Origin: a virus
Lineage: Duplodnaviria > Heunggongvirae > Uroviricota > Caudoviricetes
Length of the DNA: 11,471 bases
Direction: 5' to 3' (one strand)
Virus record (IMG/VR): IMGVR_UViG_2585427783_000001
Location: 1 to 11,471 of that record
Part shown: positions 1 through 11,471 of the stretch, piece after piece
Position numbering within the stretch: position 1 is the stretch's first letter
How the letters are laid out: every line of letters starts with the position of its first letter
Notes under the pieces: model-generated
Told to the model about the DNA's origin: nothing
The model's input: the letters and a program-made list of their open reading frames with translations, nothing else
Database searches by the model: none
Program-made: the position numbers and the translations under genes

Positions 1-616
1 GTTATACGAATCCGGCAGAATAACGGAAGCCGCGTGTATGGCTCATGTCCGGAGAAAAATCCACGATGTGCATGCAAGAGCGCCCACCTACATCACCACG
101 GAAGCCCTGCAGCGTATCGGTGAACTGTATGCCATCGAGGCAGAGGTCCGGGGCTGTTCAGCAGAACAGCGTCTGGCGGCAAGAAAAGCCAGAGCCGCGC
201 CACTGATGCAGTCACTGTATGACTGGATACAGCAACAGATGAAAACACTGTCGCGTCACTCAGATACGGCAAAAGCGTTCGCATACCTGCTGAAACAGTG
301 GGATGCACTGAACGTGTACTGCAGTAATGGCTGGGGGGAAATCGACAACAACATCGCAGAGAACGCCTTACGGGGAGTGGCCGTAGGCCGGAAAAACTGG
401 ATGTTCGCGGGTTCCGACAGCGGTGGTGAACATGCGGCGGTGTTGTACTCGCTGATCGGCACATGCCGTCTGAACAATGTGGAGTCAGAAAAGTGGCTGC
501 GTTACGTCATTGAACATATCCAGGACTGGCCGGCAAACCGGGTACGCGATCTGTTGCCCTGGAAAGTTGATCTGAGCTCTCAGTAAATATCAATACGGTT
601 CTGACGAGTCGCTTAC
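1..616 (+). mobile_element. IS66-family insertion sequence, right-hand portion (rest lies left of the window)
   Basis: The transposase ORF is open to the window edge. About 30 bp after its stop the sequence ...GTCGCTTAC ends at 616, the reverse complement of the GTAAGCG terminus I recall for IS66-family inverted repeats. The integrase-derived sequence starts immediately after. Exact boundary is inferred. Confidence 0.55.
2..586 (+). CDS. IS66-family transposase (TnpC-like), C-terminal part; 5' end outside window
   Basis: Frame is open from position 2 with no upstream stop. Translation carries the conserved IS66 transposase C-terminal block ...[11 protein letters not shown]...[46 protein letters not shown]... 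Stop at 584-586. Confidence 0.85.
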
Positions 617-1394
617 GCTTGGCAAGCCAGTGCCGGAGTATAAACCAAAGCTGGCAAGCAAAGGAACGAAGACGCGGCATCTGGCAATACTTCGCGCTAT
701 TCTCAATATGGCTGTTGAATGGGGATGGCTTGACAGGGCGCCCAAAATATCAACACCACGCGTTAAGAATGGACGAATCAGATGGCTTACAGAGGAGGAA
801 TCGAAGCGCCTGTTTGCAGAAATTGCTCCTCACTTCTTCCCTGTGGTCATGTTTGCAATCACGACAGGCCTTCGCCGTTCCAACGTTACAGACCTTGAGT
901 GGTCACAGGTCGATCTGGATAAGAAAATGGCATGGATGCACCCTGATGAAACAAAAGCTGGCAATGCGATTGGAGTTCCTCTTAACGAAACCGCATGCCA
1001 GATATTAAGAAAACAGCAGGGGCTCCATAAGAGATGGGTATTTGTCCACACCAAACCTGCCTACCGAAGCGACGGAACAAAAACAGCAGCGGTAAGGAAA
1101 ATGAGAACCGACAGCAACAAGGCATGGAAGGGAGCGTTAAAGCGGGCAGGCATTAGCAACTTCCGCTTCCATGATCTGAGGCATACCTGGGCAAGCTGGC
1201 TGGTTCAGTCCGGTGTCTCTCTTCTTGCACTTAAAGAGATGGGAGGATGGGAAACTCTCGAAATGGTTCAAAGATACGCCCACCTTTCAGCCGGGCATCT
1301 CACCGAGCACGCGAGCAAAATCGATGCGATTATAAGTCGCAATGGCACAAATACGGCACAAGAGGAGAACGTAGTTTACTTAAATGTGAGGTAA
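617..1394 (+). pseudogene. int: Tyrosine recombinase / phage integrase, 3' fragment truncated by the IS66 insertion
   Basis: Translation ends with the catalytic signature of tyrosine recombinases (...FRFHDLRHTWASWLVQSGVSLLALKEMGGWETLEMVQRYAHLS..., the R..HxxR..Y box) preceded by ...ITTGLRRSNVTDLEWSQVDLDKKMAWMHPDETKAGNAIGVPL... Only about 255 codons remain and the N-terminal DNA-binding domains are missing. The frame runs upstream into IS66 sequence with no plausible native start (the ORF track starts at a GTG at 630). Confidence 0.8.
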
Positions 1395-1408
1395 CTTATT
1401 GATTTAAA

Positions 1409-1454
1409 TGGTGCCGATAATAGGAGTCGAACCTACGACCTTCGCATTACGAAT
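1409..1454 (-). tRNA. 3'-terminal 46 nt of tRNA-Thr only (att-core remnant, not a functional tRNA)
   Basis: Reverse complement of 1409-1454 reads ATTCGTAATGCGAAGGTCGTAGGTTCGACTCCTATTATCGGCACCA, which matches as recalled the anticodon-loop-to-CCA part of E. coli tRNA-Thr(CGU) (thrW). Similarity stops at 1455, and the 5' acceptor strand, D-arm and anticodon stem are absent. It lies 14 bp after the integrase stop, convergent with it. Confidence 0.7.
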
Positions 1455-1837
1455 TATAAGAATCCGCTTCTAATTCAAAGCATTACCCCATCAACACTGC
1501 GCTCACACGTCCCACCACATCAAAACATGTAAAGCCTTGCAAGCCATTGCGAGGCTTTATGTGTCTCAGTTTTGTCCCACCTTTTATTACGACTTGCATA
1601 GCCAATGAAGATAAACGTGACGACAAACGGCGCAGCAATCTTCCTTTCTTTCACACTTTCCCAACCCAGCATGTATACTTTTCTGCCATAACTAAAGTGA
1701 ATGCCTGTTATGAGCAACAAACAGGCATTAGCGCCGCTAGCATATTAGCTACCATTCGACTGCCACACTTAAGATTGATTTCTTAAGTATAACCCGGTTT
1801 CTAATACTACTTATATATTCAGCTCTGAGATTCATTT

Positions 1838-4800
1838 TTATCTCGTAAAGCTAGTTTTATGACTTCCTGTTAGCTGACTGTCTTCATAATAAAATGCTCC
1901 ACTAAACTCCTGTCGACCATAATGATGACTTGATATGAGTGAGCCCCCTATAACGCCCTTTTCACCTAATAATGTCCAAACGATTTCAAAACCATTGTCC
2001 CTTAACATTGTTAAAAATGGTTCTTTTTTAACAAGTAGATGCGGCTTTGAAGCATATACAGCTTCAGCTGCAAAGCAAACCATAGTTCCATTTTCATCAT
2101 TGAAGCTACCCTCTACTTCCCCACTTTTTAATCCCATCTTTTCAAAGATTAAGTTACTAGGCTTCAAAAAATTCAAAGTTTCTATTTTTGATTTGTCGAA
2201 CTCCTCTTCCCACAAATAATTAATCGAAGTGACACTAACATCAGCTATCTTAGCTCCAGACTCCCGGTCTGTTACCGAAGTCCAGTCAGATCCACCATAA
2301 TAATCTGATTTAAAAGACTTAAATGCTTCGGACCAATAGTACTCCCTATTAAATAATTGGTATCTATCAGTACATTCCGGCATCCACCTGCCCATAAAGT
2401 CTTGAGCTATTGCCCAACATCTAAAATTTTCAAATTCTTCAACTTTAACGATATAACTTCTGATCTGATACCAAACCTCTTTTCGTGGGTGCCCCCAATC
2501 ATCGTTTCCAATAATTTTTGGTTCTTTCCATGATGGATGACTTTCTAATACTATCCATTCATCACCATTATCATCTTTAACTTCAATAAAAGCATATGAA
2601 TTAGTTATAGTAGTAGAACTTTTAACCCAGTCTTCATTAGAGCAAGTCCAATCAAACACTTCATCATTAAGCCACCACATTTCTTTATTGCTTATTTTTT
2701 TCGTTCCAGTTTCTTTAAGTAAGATAGTGGGATCTATATCTCTTACGTAAGGCTCCCATGGCCCTTGGTATGGATTTTCCTTTCGTTCGTCACCATAACC
2801 TTCAAAACGAGTAAAATTATCGGCTAGCCTTGCCATGTATTCATAATAAGCAATCCATTGGTATTTTTTACCAATCCGTTCTTGGAATGCCTCTCTACGT
2901 CCACGTCCAGTTCCTATTTGTTGGTCAAAATTACCATGCTTCTCCGGATCCCAACCAAGCTCTATAACACGATTGAATATAAATTGTTGAGCTAGTCGAA
3001 GATCAAAGTGTTTATCAGTTTCCAGCAGATTATTATTATGATCCAGGTATGGCTCTATTTCATTTTCAAACTCACTTAACAGATCGTATGACAATGAATT
3101 CTTAAATAATTTCTTGCTCGCCTTTATTTCTTCCTGTGCTTTTCTACCGACCACACGACCAAATTTAATTCCTTCGCATTTATCATCATAAATGAAAGGA
3201 TCTGTGGCATCATACAAGTCTTTTTGTTGATCAGTTAGTTTACATTTGAAAGTTTTAAAAACTTGCTTACGGTCAACAGGGGTTTCATTAAACTTGCAAC
3301 CAGACCAATCAGAATGATTATAATTTGTTCCAATAGTATATCGTGAAAAGTCACCATCTTCCATAATAGAGCTCCAGAGTTCCCGATAAGGTTCTTTATC
3401 ATAAAGGGACTCTAGTTCCTCTTTTGAAGGAATCTTGTCAGGCCAAATGCTGTTGTAGGGTGGTCTAGTCTTGGATAATTCAATGCTTTCAAGTTCCAAT
3501 CCAAGATGATTAGCAAATTCAATAATCTCTCTAGCATAATCTCTAAGTAATATATTTGGATACACATACTTAGAACAAAATACCTTTTGGTAAACAGTTT
3601 CGGCTAAATATTTTAGTTCTTTAATATTATCAGTTCGCAATGTACAGCCTAATGCAACTGCAAATATTCTTTCCCAAACGTAAGGATCATTTACACCATA
3701 AAACTTATCAATTATTTTTCTCAATACAGGAATTCTTGGCTCGAGTAAACTCACTAAAGCCTTAGTTGAGCAATCTCGAAGTTCTCGGTTACTAGAAGTT
3801 AAAAACCAGCATAAACTAGTTGCAACTAGCTCGATTGACTCATCCGAAACAAAGCTTTTATCTGTTCTGGCCCATGCCCAATCGATTAGATGCCTAAATG
3901 CTGAGTCTTCACTATATTTATATTTAAGTTCTGTAGTCCAAAACGAATCTCGATTTGCCAAAGAATAATCTTTTAGCCAATCATGCAAGAAATTAGCATT
4001 AAAGGGATGGCCAACTAAACCTGAAATAGAGATCACTGCCTCGAGGAAATGATCAAAACTATCTTTAAATTTAAAAACATGTTCATTGATGAAAGGTCTA
4101 ATTTTTTCGAAATAAATAGCCTTAATATCGCGCCATATCAAGCTATCAATAAAGGCTTCTAGTAATTTAAGATTATTGCTGAACTCCGGCAGAAATTCAT
4201 AAAGCTCTTTTTCATACCTTTCTGGCAATTGAATAGACAACGCCTCTACTATTCCCGATTTTATATAAAAATCACATTCATCATGAAAATATTTTTTCAG
4301 ACGACCATCAGGCTTAAATTCACTTTCGATATTTTCAACATCATTTAATAAAAAATTAACAGTTAAATGATCATCAAACCTTTCAAAAGCCACATAAACT
4401 ACTTCCTCAGTAGAATTATCATCATTTCTCACTATGCCTTTAGTCAATAATCCTTCGTCAATCAAGGCGCTGAGGAAGGTTTTATCAGCAACATAATCAT
4501 TAACTACAGATTGAACCACTGAGTGAGCATCTTTAAGTGAAATACTATTACGACCAATCTCTAATTTGAATTTTATGATTTCATTGAGAGCATCTTTAAC
4601 AAGAGGAAAACTGGGATCGAATGCATATTTTTTTGGCGATGCTAATGATTTATTTACCCCTTCAACTAAAAAGTTAAAAATATTTGAAATCCCATTAAAT
4701 CCAACAGGCACTTTGGTTAAACCATTTTTCTTAATGCCTTCACACAATAACTTAAGAAATAGAGGATTTTTAAACTCTGGATTAAGGTTAGGAGATGAAG

Positions 4801-5443
4801 GCCTCTCAATATTGTAATAATCATAAAATAGACTAACCGCTTCCAACTCAACGTTCTGGAATCCAATATGTTCATGAATTTCAAAATTATTTCGCACAAC
4901 ATTCTCATGTGAAATTGTTACATTTCTATATGTTGTTCTGACTGACATTATCAGACCAAGCCATTCAAAGCATCTGATTTCATCGACAAAACTGTTAATA
5001 TTGTCATTCCAGAATTTATTTCCATTACCTTCATTAATAGCATCAATAAAAACTAAGACTCTTTTTCCTGTTTTTTTGCCATATAAATTCAGTTTTTCTA
5101 GGAATTCACGAGAAGTGATTTTAAGCTGTAATCTCTTGAAGATTTGTGACCATGGAGATTCATCTGAAGTAAGTTGTTGCCCTAGTATGAGTAGTGAAGG
5201 ATACCCAGAAGCAATTCGATTTTTAATCACATCAGCCAGTAAATGAGACTTACCAATTCCTGCTTTTCCTTCGAGAAGTAAGAATGGGTTGTTAGCCAAC
5301 TTCACTGTTGTTGAATTAATGAATATACGTAATTCATTGCACGCATAGTCAAATTCCCGAAGCATTCGCAGAGTAGATGAATACTTATCACTGTAATGCT
5401 TGGTTTCACCTACTTGCTCTGACTTTTCTCGGAGTTCCCACAA
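1838..5443 (-). CDS. Large P-loop NTPase of the STAND class (NACHT/NB-ARC-like) with a ~1000-aa unassigned C-terminal region; candidate antiphage protein
   Basis: Uninterrupted 1201-codon ORF. Walker A GKAGIGKS (aa 59-66, nt 5246-5269), Walker B-like hhhhDxxxE VLVFIDAINE (aa 129-138) and sensor-1-like IMSVRTT (aa 165-171) occur in the order and spacing typical of STAND NTPases. Low GC. The start codon is uncertain: the track uses a TTG at 5443, and the first in-frame ATG is codon 27 at 5365. Confidence 0.8.
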   Translation of the reverse strand: MWELREKSEQVGETKHYSDKYSSTLRMLREFDYACNELRIFINSTTVKLANNPFLLLEGKAGIGKSHLLADVIKNRIASGYPSLLILGQQLTSDESPWSQIFKRLQLKITSREFLEKLNLYGKKTGKRVLVFIDAINEGNGNKFWNDNINSFVDEIRCFEWLGLIMSVRTTYRNVTISHENVVRNNFEIHEHIGFQNVELEAVSLFYDYYNIERPSSPNLNPEFKNPLFLKLLCEGIKKNGLTKVPVGFNGISNIFNFLVEGVNKSLASPKKYAFDPSFPLVKDALNEIIKFKLEIGRNSISLKDAHSVVQSVVNDYVADKTFLSALIDEGLLTKGIVRNDDNSTEEVVYVAFERFDDHLTVNFLLNDVENIESEFKPDGRLKKYFHDECDFYIKSGIVEALSIQLPERYEKELYEFLPEFSNNLKLLEAFIDSLIWRDIKAIYFEKIRPFINEHVFKFKDSFDHFLEAVISISGLVGHPFNANFLHDWLKDYSLANRDSFWTTELKYKYSEDSAFRHLIDWAWARTDKSFVSDESIELVATSLCWFLTSSNRELRDCSTKALVSLLEPRIPVLRKIIDKFYGVNDPYVWERIFAVALGCTLRTDNIKELKYLAETVYQKVFCSKYVYPNILLRDYAREIIEFANHLGLELESIELSKTRPPYNSIWPDKIPSKEELESLYDKEPYRELWSSIMEDGDFSRYTIGTNYNHSDWSGCKFNETPVDRKQVFKTFKCKLTDQQKDLYDATDPFIYDDKCEGIKFGRVVGRKAQEEIKASKKLFKNSLSYDLLSEFENEIEPYLDHNNNLLETDKHFDLRLAQQFIFNRVIELGWDPEKHGNFDQQIGTGRGRREAFQERIGKKYQWIAYYEYMARLADNFTRFEGYGDERKENPYQGPWEPYVRDIDPTILLKETGTKKISNKEMWWLNDEVFDWTCSNEDWVKSSTTITNSYAFIEVKDDNGDEWIVLESHPSWKEPKIIGNDDWGHPRKEVWYQIRSYIVKVEEFENFRCWAIAQDFMGRWMPECTDRYQLFNREYYWSEAFKSFKSDYYGGSDWTSVTDRESGAKIADVSVTSINYLWEEEFDKSKIETLNFLKPSNLIFEKMGLKSGEVEGSFNDENGTMVCFAAEAVYASKPHLLVKKEPFLTMLRDNGFEIVWTLLGEKGVIGGSLISSHHYGRQEFSGAFYYEDSQLTGSHKTSFTR

Positions 5444-5536
5444 TATTGATACCGCTCCGCCAATAGCTGTCTGGCAGCTAGAAACATAGTTATTAAATTT
5501 ATTTATAGGGATTTCATCTAATTTAGAAAAATTAAT

Positions 5537-6292
5537 CTACTGATATATATCAGAAATTTCTTTTAAGGACTGATTTATTTCAAATAATTCTGAGGAAATT
5601 ACATCGCAACTATGTAATTTCTTTCCAGCGACCAGAAAGCTATCTATATGCGAATAAAATATTTTAGAAAAATCATTAGTTCTACCGAGGCCATCAAATA
5701 TCTCTGCTATTTCTAGCTTTACGTTGAGTTCGGGTGTGTATCGACCTCCCAAGTCAGCTATTGCTTGACTATTTTTTTCATTTAACCAATCATCACTTAA
5801 GTGAAAAGTTAGTTTCTCATCTATAGACCGTAAAATAAGTTTGACTTGAATGAGCTCTTCATTAATATCGAATATTTTTTCTTTATACGTTTCTTCGATA
5901 TGTAGCTTTTTTAACTTCGAACAATTATTGATTTTTAATGATAACATCCCATAAAAAAGGCTGAGTTGTTGTTGAGTTGGGGGAGTGACGCTTGGATATT
6001 CTTTGAACTTGTCTAATAACATCTCTTTGTCAGGGAACTCTTTAAAAAGGATGTACTCATTCAACATCTCAAACAATGGTTTAGAATGATAAAATGGAAT
6101 TGCTCCACTTTCTACTGGATATGTTTCTTCAAACTCAATTGCCGTCTCTTCAATTAGTTGATATAATCTATCCACATATTTTTCTGTGGGGAATAATGCT
6201 TTCTTAATCCAACTATATCCTTCTTGAGAAATGAATTGATCAATAAGTTTAGTTGCTACATAAGTTGCCACTGTAATTGATATGGGTTCCAT
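5537..6292 (-). CDS. Hypothetical protein (251 aa), upstream partner of the STAND NTPase; possible detached effector or N-terminal domain
   Basis: ATG at 6292 is preceded by GGGAGA about 8 nt upstream, a good Shine-Dalgarno. Same strand and same frame as the downstream NTPase gene, low GC. I see no catalytic motif in the translation. Confidence 0.7.
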   Translation of the reverse strand: MEPISITVATYVATKLIDQFISQEGYSWIKKALFPTEKYVDRLYQLIEETAIEFEETYPVESGAIPFYHSKPLFEMLNEYILFKEFPDKEMLLDKFKEYPSVTPPTQQQLSLFYGMLSLKINNCSKLKKLHIEETYKEKIFDINEELIQVKLILRSIDEKLTFHLSDDWLNEKNSQAIADLGGRYTPELNVKLEIAEIFDGLGRTNDFSKIFYSHIDSFLVAGKKLHSCDVISSELFEINQSLKEISDIYQ

Positions 6293-6460
6293 GATTAGCT
6301 TCTCCCAACAATTAAATTTTTACCAAGCGTTTATGCTTTCCAATAATTATTACATCTCACCGTAAAACATATTTATATGGTTTTAAACCTATCTATAAAT
6401 CTTGACACCTTGGCAAGAACCTAATCCTACATTTTAATATCAATCTATATAATATCGCCA
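6293..6460 (-). promoter_or_regulatory. AT-rich upstream region likely holding the promoter for the 251-aa ORF / STAND NTPase operon
   Basis: Non-coding AT-rich stretch directly upstream of the first gene of the minus-strand pair. Several weak -10/-35-like hexamers are present, for example TATAAA on the minus strand near 6373-6378. No element can be placed with confidence. Confidence 0.25.
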
Positions 6461-6814
6461 GCGTCATAATAATCGGGCTTGTCATAGTTAAGTATTCGCC
6501 TCCGATATCCCAATGAGATAAGTAAGTCATAAGTGTTATAAATGAAAAGGTTACATTTTTCAAAGAGTTATTATGATGGAATATTATTCAAAACGCAATG
6601 TAGCTGAAACGAGTCTGAGTTTAACATCCGCTCCTAGTACATAGTAGTCCTAGGGACAGTGGCGTAAAGTCATAGATGGCCGGTGGGAGGTGATGGAAAT
6701 CCTCTCATGCAAAAAATACATAAAATCGATAACGGCTGGAAATCATTCAATACTCGCACTATCGAAAGTTCACCAGCCAACCGCGCACAATCTTGCATAC
6801 GACATGCTACGGTT

Positions 6815-7369
6815 TCATTTATCTCCGACCGGAAACTTCTTATACAGTGTCGATATACCAACATCATAGATGATCGCCACCTTCTGGCGAGGAACGCCTG
6901 ATGCAATTAATCGCCCGGCCTGCGCCCATTGTTCTGGTGTAAGTTTGGGACGACGTCCCCCAATTCGTCCCTGTGCGCGAGCAGCTTCCAGTCCAGCTTT
7001 TGTTCGTTCAACAATCAGTTCTCGTTCCATTTCAGCCAGGGCACCCATCACATGAAAGAAAAAACGCCCCATCGGTGTGCTGGTATCAATAGCATCCGTC
7101 AGGCTGCGAAAATTAACGCCACGTTCGCGCAACTCCTCAACCAGAATGACCAGATGCCGCATACTACGCCCCAGCCGATCCAGTTTCCAGACCACCAGAG
7201 TGTCACCTGCCGATAATGTCCTGAGCAGTTTTTTCAGTCCCGGTCTTTCGGACTTCGTACCGCTTATCTTGTCTTCAAAAATCAGTTCACATCCTACACA
7301 GTTCAACGCATTACGTTGTAGATCGGTGTTCTGGTCATTTGTTGATACGCGAACATAGCCAATAAGCAT
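6815..7369 (-). CDS. pin: Serine DNA invertase of the Pin/Gin/Hin/Cin family
   Basis: Translation MLIGYVRVSTNDQNTDLQRNAL...DTLVVWKLDRLGRSMRHLV...[28 protein letters not shown]...GRIGGRRPKLT... is a canonical small serine recombinase with catalytic Ser in YVRVST and a C-terminal helix-turn-helix. The ATG at 7369 has GGGGGA about 6 nt upstream. The ORF track begins 12 codons earlier (MASFLLLPGGST), probably not the real start. Confidence 0.9.
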   Translation of the reverse strand: MLIGYVRVSTNDQNTDLQRNALNCVGCELIFEDKISGTKSERPGLKKLLRTLSAGDTLVVWKLDRLGRSMRHLVILVEELRERGVNFRSLTDAIDTSTPMGRFFFHVMGALAEMERELIVERTKAGLEAARAQGRIGGRRPKLTPEQWAQAGRLIASGVPRQKVAIIYDVGISTLYKKFPVGDK

Positions 7370-7455
7370 GGTAGATCCCCCAGGTAAAAGCAGGAATGAT
7401 GCCATTTGCTCGTTATTTCTGCATTTTCATAAACCTTGGTTTGGGAGAAGGTGCT
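7041..7455. repeat. Left arm of a ~415-bp inverted repeat (invertase 5' region plus crossover site)
   Basis: Reverse complement of 9164-9578 aligns base for base with 7041-7455 (coordinate sum 16619) with only a few mismatches: two amino-acid changes in the invertase and CC versus TG inside the crossover site. The right arm is cut at 9578 by IS100, so the original repeat may have been longer. Confidence 0.8.
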
Positions 7456-7893
7456 CCAGCTATTGGCGTTCCGTTCTTCTGGCCGTCCGCTGCAATGCCA
7501 AATACTGTAATCGACAGCTGGTCCAGTATGGTGTTTTTGAAGTTCAACGGCGCGAAATTCTCTGCCACTGATTATCCTGTGCTGGCGAAAGTGTTTCCTT
7601 CGCTGGTATTACCTGAAGCCCGCGGTGATTTCATTCGTATCTGGGATGACGGGCGAGGTGCAGACGGTGGTCGCGAATTATTAAGCTGGCAGGCAGCTAC
7701 AAACTTTTCTCAGTTTGCCGGGAATATAGGCGAAGGTGCGGGACACGCAATTAACTTTCATGATGGCATCGCCGGAAATCAGCCAGGATTTTCACGATTT
7801 AATTTCACCAGTAACTCTGTGGGTGATGGTGTGAATTTTGTTGCTGTCAGACCGCGAAATATTGCATTTAACTTTCTGGTGAGGGCTAAATAA
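7396..7893 (+). CDS. Tail-fibre C-terminal variable-domain cassette (Sv-like); lacks the constant N-terminal part
   Basis: Gly/Asn-rich translation ending ...RPRNIAFNFLVRAK, like side-tail-fibre C-termini. Its stop overlaps the start of the following tfa gene (TAATG). The first ~10 codons (MMPFARYFCIFIN) lie inside the inverted repeat, antisense to the invertase leader. There is a stop at 7372-7374 and no upstream tail-fibre constant region. Confidence 0.7.
   Translation: MMPFARYFCIFINLGLGEGAPAIGVPFFWPSAAMPNTVIDSWSSMVFLKFNGAKFSATDYPVLAKVFPSLVLPEARGDFIRIWDDGRGADGGRELLSWQAATNFSQFAGNIGEGAGHAINFHDGIAGNQPGFSRFNFTSNSVGDGVNFVAVRPRNIAFNFLVRAK
7424..7449. other. Invertase crossover site, left (gix/hix/cix/pix-like 26-bp site)
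   Basis: TTTTCATAAACC-TT-GGTTTGGGAGAA resembles the recalled hix/gix consensus TTATCAAAAACC-NN-GGTTTTTGATAA (imperfect palindromic half-sites). It sits exactly at the junction between the inverted repeat and unique DNA. Confidence 0.55.
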
Positions 7894-8486
7894 TGAAACC
7901 TGTTTTTGATGAAAATGGGCTGGCTACAGTGCCGGGCGATATGCGTTGTTTTTATTATGATGCTGAAACATCTGAGTATACGGGCTGGTCTGATGAATAT
8001 ATTAATACTGGCGTAAGTATGCCCGCCTGTTCCACTGGTATTGACCCTGGCGAAAACATTCCGGGAAGAGTGGCAGTATTTACAGGTAAGGGATGGCGCC
8101 ATGAAGAAGACCATCGCAATGAGACTGTTTACTTAATCGAAAATGGCGCAGCTGTTACAGTGGATTATATCGGTGCCATCAAAGACGGTTATGTCACGAT
8201 TTCACCGTTAACGCCATACGATAAATGGGATGGTGAGAAATGGGTGACAGACACTGAGGCACAACACAGTGCCGCAGTAGACGCGGCAGAAGCACAGCGC
8301 CAGTCACTGATTGATGCAGCAATGGCTTCCATTAGTCTGATTCAGCTGAAATTACAGGCCGGACGGAAACTGACTCAGGCAGAAACAACCCGACTTAACG
8401 CCGTGCTGGATTACATTGACGCGGTGACGGCAACAGATACCAGCACCGCGCCGGATATCATCTGGCCTGAACTGCCGGAGGCGTAG
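7893..8486 (+). CDS. tfa: Tail-fibre assembly protein (Tfa/U-like chaperone)
   Basis: 197 aa with blocks ...AVFTGKGWRHEEDHRNETVY...YDKWDGEKWVTDTEAQ... and the C-terminal DTSTAPDIIWPELP motif shared by lambda Tfa / Mu U-type proteins. Translationally coupled to the preceding cassette. Confidence 0.85.
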   Translation: MKPVFDENGLATVPGDMRCFYYDAETSEYTGWSDEYINTGVSMPACSTGIDPGENIPGRVAVFTGKGWRHEEDHRNETVYLIENGAAVTVDYIGAIKDGYVTISPLTPYDKWDGEKWVTDTEAQHSAAVDAAEAQRQSLIDAAMASISLIQLKLQAGRKLTQAETTRLNAVLDYIDAVTATDTSTAPDIIWPELPEA

Positions 8487-8886
8487 GCCATTCAATATCG
8501 GGTGCTGTTGACGTATCAACACGCATCAGCAGCACACGGTATTTCTTCCATTGGGTGAGAGTTGTAGCTTCTTCATCAGTTGCGATATCAGCATCAACAG
8601 CATCCTGACGCCAGGATATTTCACTGTCAGCTTTTTCCCGTAATTGGGATTTTTTAACTTCAGCAATAGCTATTAATTCCTTTTTGGTCGGCTGAGGAAT
8701 ATCTATCAGTGCTGGTTTTCCATTCAGTGTTCCAATCTGTTTTCCTGGTGGAATATCCATAAATAACTTCTTATGTTCTTCCTCACTGACTATTACACCA
8801 TCATCAGGCCACAGACCTGATGCCTCAAATTTTTCTTTCTCCGATATGGGGAAAAAGCCATTTGCTTTAGCGCTCCATACGTACAT
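8458..8886 (-). CDS. tfa: Tail-fibre assembly protein, alternative copy (Tfa/U'-like)
   Basis: 142 aa ending ...WKKYRVLLMRVDTSTAPDIEWPTPP, the same C-terminal motif as the forward copy. Start is adjacent to the stop of the reverse tail-fibre cassette. Its 3' end overlaps the forward tfa by 29 bp. Confidence 0.8.
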   Translation of the reverse strand: MYVWSAKANGFFPISEKEKFEASGLWPDDGVIVSEEEHKKLFMDIPPGKQIGTLNGKPALIDIPQPTKKELIAIAEVKKSQLREKADSEISWRQDAVDADIATDEEATTLTQWKKYRVLLMRVDTSTAPDIEWPTPPAVQAR

Positions 8887-8887
8887 A

Positions 8888-9223
8888 TCAATACCCCACC
8901 GCTATAATGTCCACATTAAATCCCCCGGGACCTGCCTGCCAGATGCTGGCCCCTGTTAATGATTTTGTTTGATGAACAACCGCCACATTTGCTGGCGATT
9001 GTGTTTCAGTTGTTACAGTACCGATATCATTCCAGTTAATTGAGATGGAATAGTTCGTTGTTGTAAACGACCGGGGGAAAGTTATGTGTCTTACATTGGT
9101 GCCGACAGGAAATCCAAGATAAACACGCTGAATTATCATTCCTCCAGGTAACATAACCCAGTTAGCACCTTCTCCAAAACCAACATTTATGAAAATGCAG
9201 AAATAACGAGCAAATGGCATCAT
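8888..9223 (-). CDS. Alternative tail-fibre C-terminal variable-domain cassette (Sv'-like); lacks the constant part
   Basis: Mirror-image partner of the forward cassette, beginning inside the right repeat arm with the same MMPFARYFCIFIN leader and then diverging (...GEGANWVMLPGG...NVDIIAVGY). Directly followed by the reverse tfa gene. Confidence 0.65.
   Translation of the reverse strand: MMPFARYFCIFINVGFGEGANWVMLPGGMIIQRVYLGFPVGTNVRHITFPRSFTTTNYSISINWNDIGTVTTETQSPANVAVVHQTKSLTGASIWQAGPGGFNVDIIAVGY
9170..9195. other. Invertase crossover site, right (inverted relative to the left site)
   Basis: TTCTCCAAAACC-AA-CATTTATGAAAA is the reverse complement of the left site apart from two central bases, and sits at the junction of repeat and unique DNA. 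Confidence 0.55.
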
Positions 9224-9249
9224 TCCTGCTTTTACCTGGGGGATCTACC

Positions 9250-11471
<2,222 letters not shown>

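Follow-up and report, generated by a model that had tools for sequence, protein, structure and literature searches.

The window analyzed here, an 11,471-nucleotide stretch spanning positions 1 to 11,471 of the IMG/VR virus record IMGVR_UViG_2585427783_000001, raises the question of whether two adjacent open reading frames (ORFs) constitute a new two-gene anti-phage system or part of one already known. The ORFs encode 251 aa (5537-6292) and 1201 aa (1838-5443), and a preliminary description, made from the sequence alone, had regarded them as a co-directional minus-strand pair within a low-GC block. Both observations have been borne out by the ORF list and by base composition, with a GC fraction of 0.342 at 1838-6292 compared with 0.511 (1-1454) and 0.491 (6814-11471) in the flanks, that is, 34% against about 50%. 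The proposal of a two-gene module, in contrast, does not stand. Both ORFs share one reading frame (6292-5443 = 849 = 3 x 283) and are separated by one in-frame TAG alone, and translation of the 1485-codon frame meets a stop at codons 252 and 1485 and nowhere else. The intact counterpart in NZ_LR883050.1, the nearest complete genome, has the same coordinates and is annotated by RefSeq as one avs2 gene (WP_001394806.1), with GAG (Glu) at codon 252. The locus is consequently a single broken gene, in which Glu252 has become an amber codon (GAG to TAG, E252*; 5537..5539, minus strand, the changed base being window position 5539), inside one frame of 1484 codons (1838..6292, minus strand) that is identified as Avs2 (AVAST type 2, EcAvs2-type) by its translation, the intact RefSeq allele, NCBIfam, PADLOC and PDB entry 9O4E. 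An ORF list can therefore disguise one broken gene as a new two-gene system, a matter which a same-frame check and a profile search are able to settle.

The long protein had been assigned to the STAND NTPases that act as phage sensors, and this class has been confirmed as Avs/AVAST by NCBIfam, PADLOC and 9O4E. It had also been stated that the pair could not be placed in any named family, a view which has to be abandoned, given that the system is already known as Avs2, a well-studied E. coli anti-phage gene, reportedly first described by Gao et al. in 2020 and 2022. Residues 284-1484 alone score 1594.2 bits against the Avs2 equivalog NCBIfam NF041813, for which the whole-protein cut-off is 1000, and residues 178-246, within the 251-aa piece, are matched by that profile's positions 1-72. 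The PADLOC profiles PDLC02161-02166 all match with 459-1598 bits; PDLC02164 is colinear over both pieces (profile positions 58-259 and 293-1497 of 1504), and positions 167-240 of PDLC02162 match residues 164-237. Chain A of PDB 9O4E ('Avs2', 1484 aa), the cryo-EM structure of EcAvs2 (Evans et al., 2026; PMC13601566), aligns at residues 1-251 and 284-1484, with 11 differences in the first 251 residues and one among the approximately 955 listed residues of the remainder. At the reading-frame level, the tripartite order of an N-terminal effector, a STAND NTPase with Walker A/B and an Avs2-specific C-terminal sensor has been found. It is thus probable, at roughly 0.87, that the locus is an allele of EcAvs2 in which a single G-to-T substitution has changed Glu252 (GAG) to amber and so inactivated the gene in this E. 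coli lineage. A PHROGs search gave no match for the 251-aa piece or for a 50-aa ORF downstream of avs2.

The frame begins with a modular N-terminal effector domain (approximately residues 1-165; 5798..6292, minus strand), which is all-alpha, has a 'MEPIS' start and lacks a catalytic signature, as judged from sequence, profiles, an AF2 model and the literature. Its N-terminus is MEPISITVATYVATK, where the Kyte-Doolittle value averages 1.31 over residues 3-17 and a helix is modelled from residue 5/6 to 21/22; a 'MEPIS'-type hydrophobic N-terminal helix is present, and no segment reaches transmembrane hydrophobicity. The correspondence of MEPIS to Bab has been taken from bioRxiv 10.1101/2024.11.07.622273 and not from our own alignment. 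The modularity is reflected in the profiles of other Avs2 subfamilies, which start matching only from approximately residue 164-178. The AF2 model of residues 1-165 is all-helical (pTM 0.67, mean pLDDT 67.4), while that of the N-terminal 399 aa has a mean pLDDT of 63.9 and a pTM of 0.36. Of the profile and fold searches suggested in the preliminary description, PADLOC was informative in returning Avs2, whereas Foldseek against the PDB with both models, which are of modest confidence (mean pLDDT 64 and 67), gave no match at E <= 0.001 and only generic helical bundles, globins and Dps. Against PDB sequences, the 251-aa piece retrieved only 9O4E and no Bab-like chain.

Between the effector and the ATPase lies a helical extension with approximate boundaries (residues 166-331; 5300..5797, minus strand), recognized from profiles, the AF2 model and published work (PMC13601566) as conserved Avs2 core. 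Helices are modelled at 206-224, 230-252, 263-294 and 298-333, and the stop sits inside this conserved extension and run of helices, not at a linker or domain boundary. The STAND ATPase core motifs follow (4930..5269, minus strand). The three motifs noted early in the long ORF are indeed there, at its residues 59-66 (GKAGIGKS), 129-138 (VLVFIDAINE) and 165-171 (IMSVRTT), and correspond in the full frame to Walker A at 342-349 (K348), Walker B at 412-421 and a sensor-1-like motif at 448-454; the K65A mutant proposed earlier is the published K348A. The rest of the ATPase (HD1/WHD), a TPR domain and a C-terminal beta-rich sensor occupy 1838..4929 (minus strand) and are near-identical to 9O4E. What had been taken for about 1000 residues without a motif is the published TPR domain together with the terminase-binding C-terminal sensor, and the terminase/ATP contact residues listed in the same study (D981, R1130, W1266, E1362, E1364, E1444, and E1462) are all conserved (PMC13601566). 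The effector had been sought either in the 251-aa protein or in the C-terminal region; the N-terminal part does hold it, whereas the C-terminal region is accounted for by the TPR domain and the terminase sensor.

In essence, the experiments suggested in the preliminary description have all been published already for the intact allele, with defence assays, a Walker A K348A mutant and structural analysis (PMC13601566). These studies have shown that EcAvs2 senses the phage large terminase, tetramerises via its STAND ATPase and kills the cell via an N-terminal effector, which is uncharacterised and probably non-enzymatic. Ligands of the sensor are the terminase ATPase domain and a bridging ATP, and the large helical extension contacts the terminase. 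Phage defence and the toxicity triggered by the terminase both depend on the Walker A lysine, defence being abolished by K348A; Avs effectors are proximity-activated and have to be attached to the ATPase that tetramerises (PMC13601566). According to this and related work (PMC13601566; bioRxiv 10.1101/2024.11.07.622273; PMC11564622), the intact protein binds the ATPase domain of the phage large terminase with bridging ATP through its TPR domain, beta-rich sensor and helical extension, after which the STAND ATPase (Walker A K348) drives a flat C4 tetramer, which in turn gathers four N-terminal effector domains and leads to cell death (abortive infection). Membrane damage by the MEPIS effector, whose motif is that of Bell/HeLo-type cell-death domains, would be the leading explanation of the last step, a suggestion which draws on a 15-residue literature motif, our own PDB sequence and Foldseek searches having given no Bab, Bell or HeLo domain match. 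How the EcAvs2 effector kills is a question already recognized in the literature, and the window makes the answer no easier.

In the amber allele, translation from the ATG at 6292, a good start preceded by the Shine-Dalgarno sequence GGGAGA, would end after residue 251, and the product would comprise the effector and about 85 residues of the helical extension, without ATPase and without sensor. No convincing start serves the 1232 codons past the stop. The TTG from which the 1201-aa ORF was listed is just the first start-like codon past the TAG; this codon, TTG284, lies 32 codons on, with a weak GGAG 11 nt upstream, and the first ATG past the stop is codon 310, without a Shine-Dalgarno sequence. 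A promoter and terminator scan returned 19 sites against 23.1 expected from shuffled sequence, that is, no excess, with no terminator-like site on the minus strand, on which avs2 lies. Since the ATPase and sensor would be missing and no convincing downstream start is present, we infer that the locus is most likely non-functional for defence, a recent loss-of-function allele predicted to be inactive. Apart from the stop it carries one silent change only, and thus shows no further decay that would serve as an independent mark of a pseudogene. Full-length protein would be made again if the amber codon were read through at a low level or if the host had a suppressor tRNA, and the persistence of the allele in seven carriers is also compatible with neutrality or residual function. 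What the natural E252* allele offers is at most a fragment, the effector with part of the helical extension, that is evidently tolerated by cells. The same gene type is broken by frameshifts at unrelated positions in two other species (Erwinia and Photobacterium), in one case just before Walker A, which indicates that the gene is recurrently lost. These examples come from a homologue search with the 251-aa piece, which returned almost only short or partial proteins and is biased, so that it has been used for examples and not for the frequency of splits.

Among the competing readings, a novel STAND system without a name, made of two genes of which one encodes a 251-aa effector, is what a mechanical ORF list, with its two ORFs, would suggest, and Pfam by itself gave only sub-threshold STAND matches (nSTAND6, 18.8 bits; NACHT, 13 bits) and no match for the 251-aa ORF. 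An unplaced family deduced from Pfam alone is nonetheless overruled by NCBIfam, PADLOC and the PDB, as the curated Avs2 equivalog threshold is passed, the PADLOC Avs2 profiles match and the frame is near-identical to a solved and named protein. Nor do homologues show effector and sensor as separate genes, since 87 complete E. coli genomes have avs2 as one undivided CDS, and this reading has practically no probability left. It could also be supposed that the stop is an assembly or sequencing artefact and that the strain truly has an intact Avs2. Only two nucleotides of the gene set this allele apart from the intact one, the nonsense change (nt 754, G>T) and a second private, silent change 34 nt away (nt 720, C>T), and neither occurs in any complete genome examined; of the complete E. 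coli genomes, 80 contain this stretch, and all 80 keep GAG, none having the TAG. Against an artefact, the identical TAG has been found in seven contigs, five of them from distinct NCBI assemblies and two from public read sets that were assembled independently, and the carriers form two nested haplotypes, three of the seven contigs retaining the ancestral C at nt 720, as expected of real descent. The stop is therefore an inherited allele and not a read error, and an artefact is extremely unlikely. One further contig (L010) was considered as an eighth carrier and rejected, because its allele has G at nt 754 and is intact, its protein appearing short only where the contig ends.

Two further proposals accept the amber codon but not a simple loss. 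In one of them, the allele would be a working split Avs2, in which the 251-aa effector and a sensor-ATPase re-initiated at TTG284 or ATG310 pair non-covalently and still defend, as in two-gene NLR/effector pairs. Both halves are otherwise intact beside the stop, the allele persists in at least seven isolates or runs and has gained a later silent change, the weak GGAG lies ahead of TTG284, and homologues of the effector are built into several architectures, one of them a 267-aa protein standing alone on a marine contig (see also PMC13601566). Nevertheless, the cut does not separate two domains but falls within the conserved helical extension, residues 252-283 would be missing, Avs effectors require tethering to the tetramerising ATPase (PMC13601566), no such split is seen in complete genomes with the intact gene, and at the other split loci the gene is simply frameshifted, at arbitrary positions, so that a working split is very unlikely. 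Re-initiation 96 nt past a stop works poorly, and Rho polarity would reduce transcript levels beyond it, which likewise counts against a split. It is similarly improbable that the amber is not simply lethal to the gene, either because fragment 1-251 and a re-initiated sensor-ATPase cooperate in trans or because low readthrough holds a toxic sensor at a tolerable dose; if this were true, a fused Avs protein would tolerate splitting, and the allele would offer a natural construct for dissecting EcAvs2 effector activation. In the other proposal, which refines the loss of function rather than opposing it, the nonsense mutation would have been positively selected, Avs2 being costly alongside inducible prophages whose terminases trigger it. 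Avs2 responds to very diverse terminases, including those of prophages (PMC13601566), the gene sits in a prophage-rich mosaic, and independent disruptions occur in Erwinia and Photobacterium. However, a single E. coli lineage has been found, with GAG kept in every complete genome compared, and the search that gave the other broken copies favours short proteins, so such an adaptive loss has little likelihood.

As an EcAvs2 allele broken by a nonsense mutation, the locus can be compared with characterized systems. It shares with EcAvs2 (9O4E) the 1484-codon frame, the order of MEPIS effector, helical extension, STAND ATPase, TPR domain and C-terminal sensor, and all published contacts together with K348, but differs in the amber at codon 252, which would leave no full-length protein unless suppressed, and in a few substitutions, which cluster in the effector. 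KpAvs2 and most Avs2 homologues (Bechon et al., 2024; PMC11564622) have the same core from approximately residue 165 and the same logic, in which a sensed phage protein activates the N-terminal effector. KpAvs2-type proteins, however, carry an Mrr-like DNA endonuclease effector, some with the accessory genes Avap1/2 (PMC11564622), whereas the effector in the window is of the rarer, non-enzymatic MEPIS type and is not accompanied by an accessory gene. The Bab/Agp amyloid-signalling Abi systems and the Bell/Hell/HeLo domains have an N-terminal 'MEPIS' motif of about 15 residues in common with Avast2, where the motif is required and its mutation impairs defence against T4 (Ibarlosa et al., bioRxiv 10.1101/2024.11.07.622273); unlike Bab/Agp, the window has no amyloid (BASS11) partner gene, and its effector is fused to the sensor. 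Two-gene STAND systems have separate effector and sensor genes with their own starts in homologues, in contrast to the single CDS of the complete genomes.

The genomic setting had been correctly described as the slot between an att remnant and a pin invertase that holds mcrA in e14, as supported by a thrW suffix match, RefSeq pinE and comparison with K-12. The att remnant (1409..1454, minus strand) matches the 46 nt at the 3' end of K-12 thrW (tRNA-Thr CGU) exactly, and ARAGORN detects no complete tRNA there. The pinE-type invertase (6815..7369, minus strand), identified by RefSeq and by e14 similarity, is directly upstream of avs2 and co-directional with it; window positions 6814-7451 are 91% identical to e14 pinE and its upstream region, the homology ending at the pinE stop codon. 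In K-12, mcrA follows pinE in the same orientation, and the e14 end (stfE-tfaE-pinE-mcrA-attR) likewise has one co-directional defence gene past pinE and then an att remnant, although the cargo in the window is avs2 instead of mcrA and the remnant is derived from thrW instead of icd. In the window, avs2 is cargo beside pin where an e14-like prophage remnant ends, in the slot of mcrA, a textbook case of a defence gene carried beside an invertase at a prophage end. It is also a case in which such a gene has most likely been lost by one point mutation in one lineage. The element has been further rearranged by IS66 and IS100, and a second pin copy is present.

Two co-directional minus-strand ORFs are present in the ORF listing, a small one of 251 aa with an ATG start (5537-6292) and a long one of 1201 aa for which the listing gives a TTG start (1838-5443), and both lie in one frame, the offset 6292-5443 being 849 nt, or 3 x 283. 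When 1838-6292 is translated whole, 1484 codons are obtained, interrupted only at codon 252 by a TAG (window 5537-5539) ahead of the normal stop. The nearest complete genome, NZ_LR883050.1, is 99.9% identical to the window over 9.6 kb and has at the matching coordinates one intact CDS, annotated as "avs2: AVAST type 2 anti-phage system protein Avs2" (WP_001394806.1), with GAG at codon 252. Only two nucleotides distinguish the avs2 alleles, namely G754T, which makes the stop, and the silent C720T. The preliminary description had proposed an unplaced two-gene module; what it read as two genes is a single frame split by TAG252, and the TTG of the 1201-aa ORF is merely the first start-like codon past the stop. 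The locus is a known, structurally solved system bearing a private nonsense mutation.

Assignment to the Avs2 family comes from several profiles. The long ORF scores 1594 bits with the NCBIfam Avs2 equivalog (cut-off 1000), of which the small ORF matches positions 1-72, and in the PADLOC Avs2 profile PDLC02164 the small ORF falls at positions 58-259 and the long ORF at 293-1497, so that the two are colinear. Chain A of PDB 9O4E ("AVAST type 2 anti-phage system protein Avs2", 1484 aa), the cryo-EM structure of E. coli Avs2 (EcAvs2), aligns end to end with both ORFs (residues 1-251 and 284-1484). Pfam alone gives sub-threshold STAND matches only, which explains why the protein could not be placed by eye. 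The initial observation was partly confirmed: the three NTPase motifs named are found at long-ORF residues 59-66, 129-138 and 165-171. Its interpretation was correct as to class, a STAND anti-phage sensor whose effector is N-terminal, but novelty and gene structure were misjudged. Relative to 9O4E, 11 differences occur in residues 1-251 and one in the approximately 955 residues of the rest shown in the alignment output. This greater density of substitutions at the effector end (5540-6292 (-)) than in 1838-5443 (-) hints at recombination or faster change there.

Evans et al. (2026, PMC13601566) reported that EcAvs2 protects against T7, PhiV-1 and Pal009. The protein assembles into a flat C4 tetramer via the STAND ATPase, a helical extension sits between effector and ATPase, and terminase is bound by the TPR domain, the C-terminal beta-rich sensor and the helical extension, with a bridging ATP (PMC13601566). 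The Walker A mutation K348A abolishes defence (PMC13601566); the K65A mutant proposed in the preliminary description, with numbering from the TTG, alters this very residue (65 + 283 = 348). The contact residues named in the same study (D981, R1130, W1266, E1362, E1364, E1444 and E1462) are all conserved in the window.

The window corresponds to contig JOQM01000089.1 of GCA_000714095.1. Seven contigs, drawn from five NCBI assemblies and from two read sets assembled independently, carry the TAG in their DNA. Among these, nucleotide 720 is the ancestral C in three and T in four, a nested pattern as expected of real descent. A further contig locus, L010, was rejected as an eighth carrier, as it holds the intact allele cut off by the contig end. 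Neither G754T nor C720T was found in any of the 80 complete E. coli genomes containing the stretch (best identity 98.0% over 101 nt). The whole gene is present in 88 of 5426 complete genomes, where it is annotated avs2 every time. Downstream of the TAG, the closest in-frame start-like codon is TTG284, with GGAG 11 nt upstream, and the first ATG is codon 310, which is devoid of a Shine-Dalgarno sequence. We infer that the window's avs2 is probably a recent loss-of-function allele. It is very improbable that the split amber allele still works.

No domain boundary coincides with the stop. For Avs2 subfamilies that have other effectors, profile matches start at about residue 164-178, and in the AF2 model residue 252 ends a helix inside a run of long helices (206-333) leading to the ATPase. 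Together, these observations indicate that the 251-aa product comprises the modular effector (about 1-165) and about 85 residues of the conserved helical extension. The earlier proposal that the effector is either the 251-aa protein or the C-terminal region holds in so far as an effector lies at the N-terminus (about 1-165); a separate 251-aa protein does not stand.

When the 251-aa piece was used to search for homologues, most of the matches were fragments. On long contigs, the same MEPIS-effector type of Avs2 is broken into pieces of 352 and 1137 aa in Erwinia billingiae (locus L011, 7001-11469) and of 189 and 1296 aa in Photobacterium leiognathi (locus L014, 556-5030). Each of these genes is broken by a frameshift, which in one lies immediately ahead of Walker A and in the other affects a G-run of the effector; the copies are independent pseudogenes disrupted at arbitrary positions and do not represent an evolved two-gene layout. 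A TARA marine metagenome scaffold (L012, 7001-7804) encodes a homologue of the effector as a protein by itself, 267 aa long and with an unrelated C-terminal tail (64% identity, 84% of the query covered). An LCM-type methyltransferase gene and no STAND gene comes after it, which fits the remark that the effector is modular (PMC13601566).

The N-terminal effector of EcAvs2 has been described as uncharacterised, without conserved polar residues, probably non-enzymatic and unseen in the cryo-EM map (PMC13601566). KpAvs2 and most other Avs2 proteins carry an Mrr-type nuclease instead (PMC11564622), whereas the N-terminus encoded in the window, MEPISITVATYVATK, is of the MEPIS type. Ibarlosa et al. 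(bioRxiv 10.1101/2024.11.07.622273) reported that Avast2 has conserved the "MEPIS" N-terminal motif of Bab/Bell/Hell cell-death domains and that mutations in this motif weaken its defence against T4. AF2 models are all-alpha for residues 1-399 (mean pLDDT 63.9) and 1-165 (mean pLDDT 67.4, pTM 0.67). A Bell/HeLo-like membrane mechanism for the effector remains a lead from the literature that the fold does not confirm, because neither model has a Foldseek match in the PDB at E <= 0.001 and no 19-residue window reaches transmembrane-level hydrophobicity (maximum Kyte-Doolittle 1.12).

The surroundings agree with the preliminary description. GC content is 0.342 in 1838-6292 and 0.350 in 1455-6813, compared with 0.511 in the left flank and 0.491 in the right. 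The AT-rich block (roughly 1750-6750 by sliding-window GC) lies entirely between the att remnant and pinE, consistent with cargo acquired horizontally at the end of a prophage. The att core remnant noted earlier (1409-1454 (-)) matches the final 46 nt of thrW exactly. The neighbouring pin invertase was also correctly identified, 6814-7451 showing 91% identity to pinE of e14 and the region upstream of it, with homology stopping at the pinE stop codon. In K-12, pinE is followed by mcrA in the same orientation and then by attR; the mcrA slot is occupied here by avs2, in line with the preliminary description.

Adjoining the thrW remnant is an integrase (630-1394 (+)) that is truncated at its N-terminus by IS66 and abuts the end of an IS66 tnpC (1-586 (+)); several mobile elements meet at this point, near the CP4-6/pao chromosome region. 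Downstream of avs2, a 50-aa ORF (1520-1672 (-)) encodes the hypothetical protein WP_000901952.1, with no PHROG match, and is overlapped by an 18-pair stem-loop (1525-1564, on the + strand in the scan). On the other side, a 415-nt inverted repeat, 97% complementary (7041-7455 and 9164-9578), consists of the 5' parts of two outward-facing pin invertase genes and 82 nt upstream. For each orientation there is a tail-fibre tip and a tail-fibre assembly gene in the segment that they flank (7396-9223); it is unusual for one invertible segment to have two recombinase copies around it. The ORF at 7396-7893 (+) (13432-13893 of comparison locus L001) is labelled "integrase, incomplete" by RefSeq in NZ_LR883050.1, probably a mis-annotation, because PHROGs identifies a tail-fibre C-terminus (phrog_3100, E = 9.5e-54). 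IS100, with istA at 9665-10687 and istB at 10684-11466, interrupts the second pin copy at 9578.
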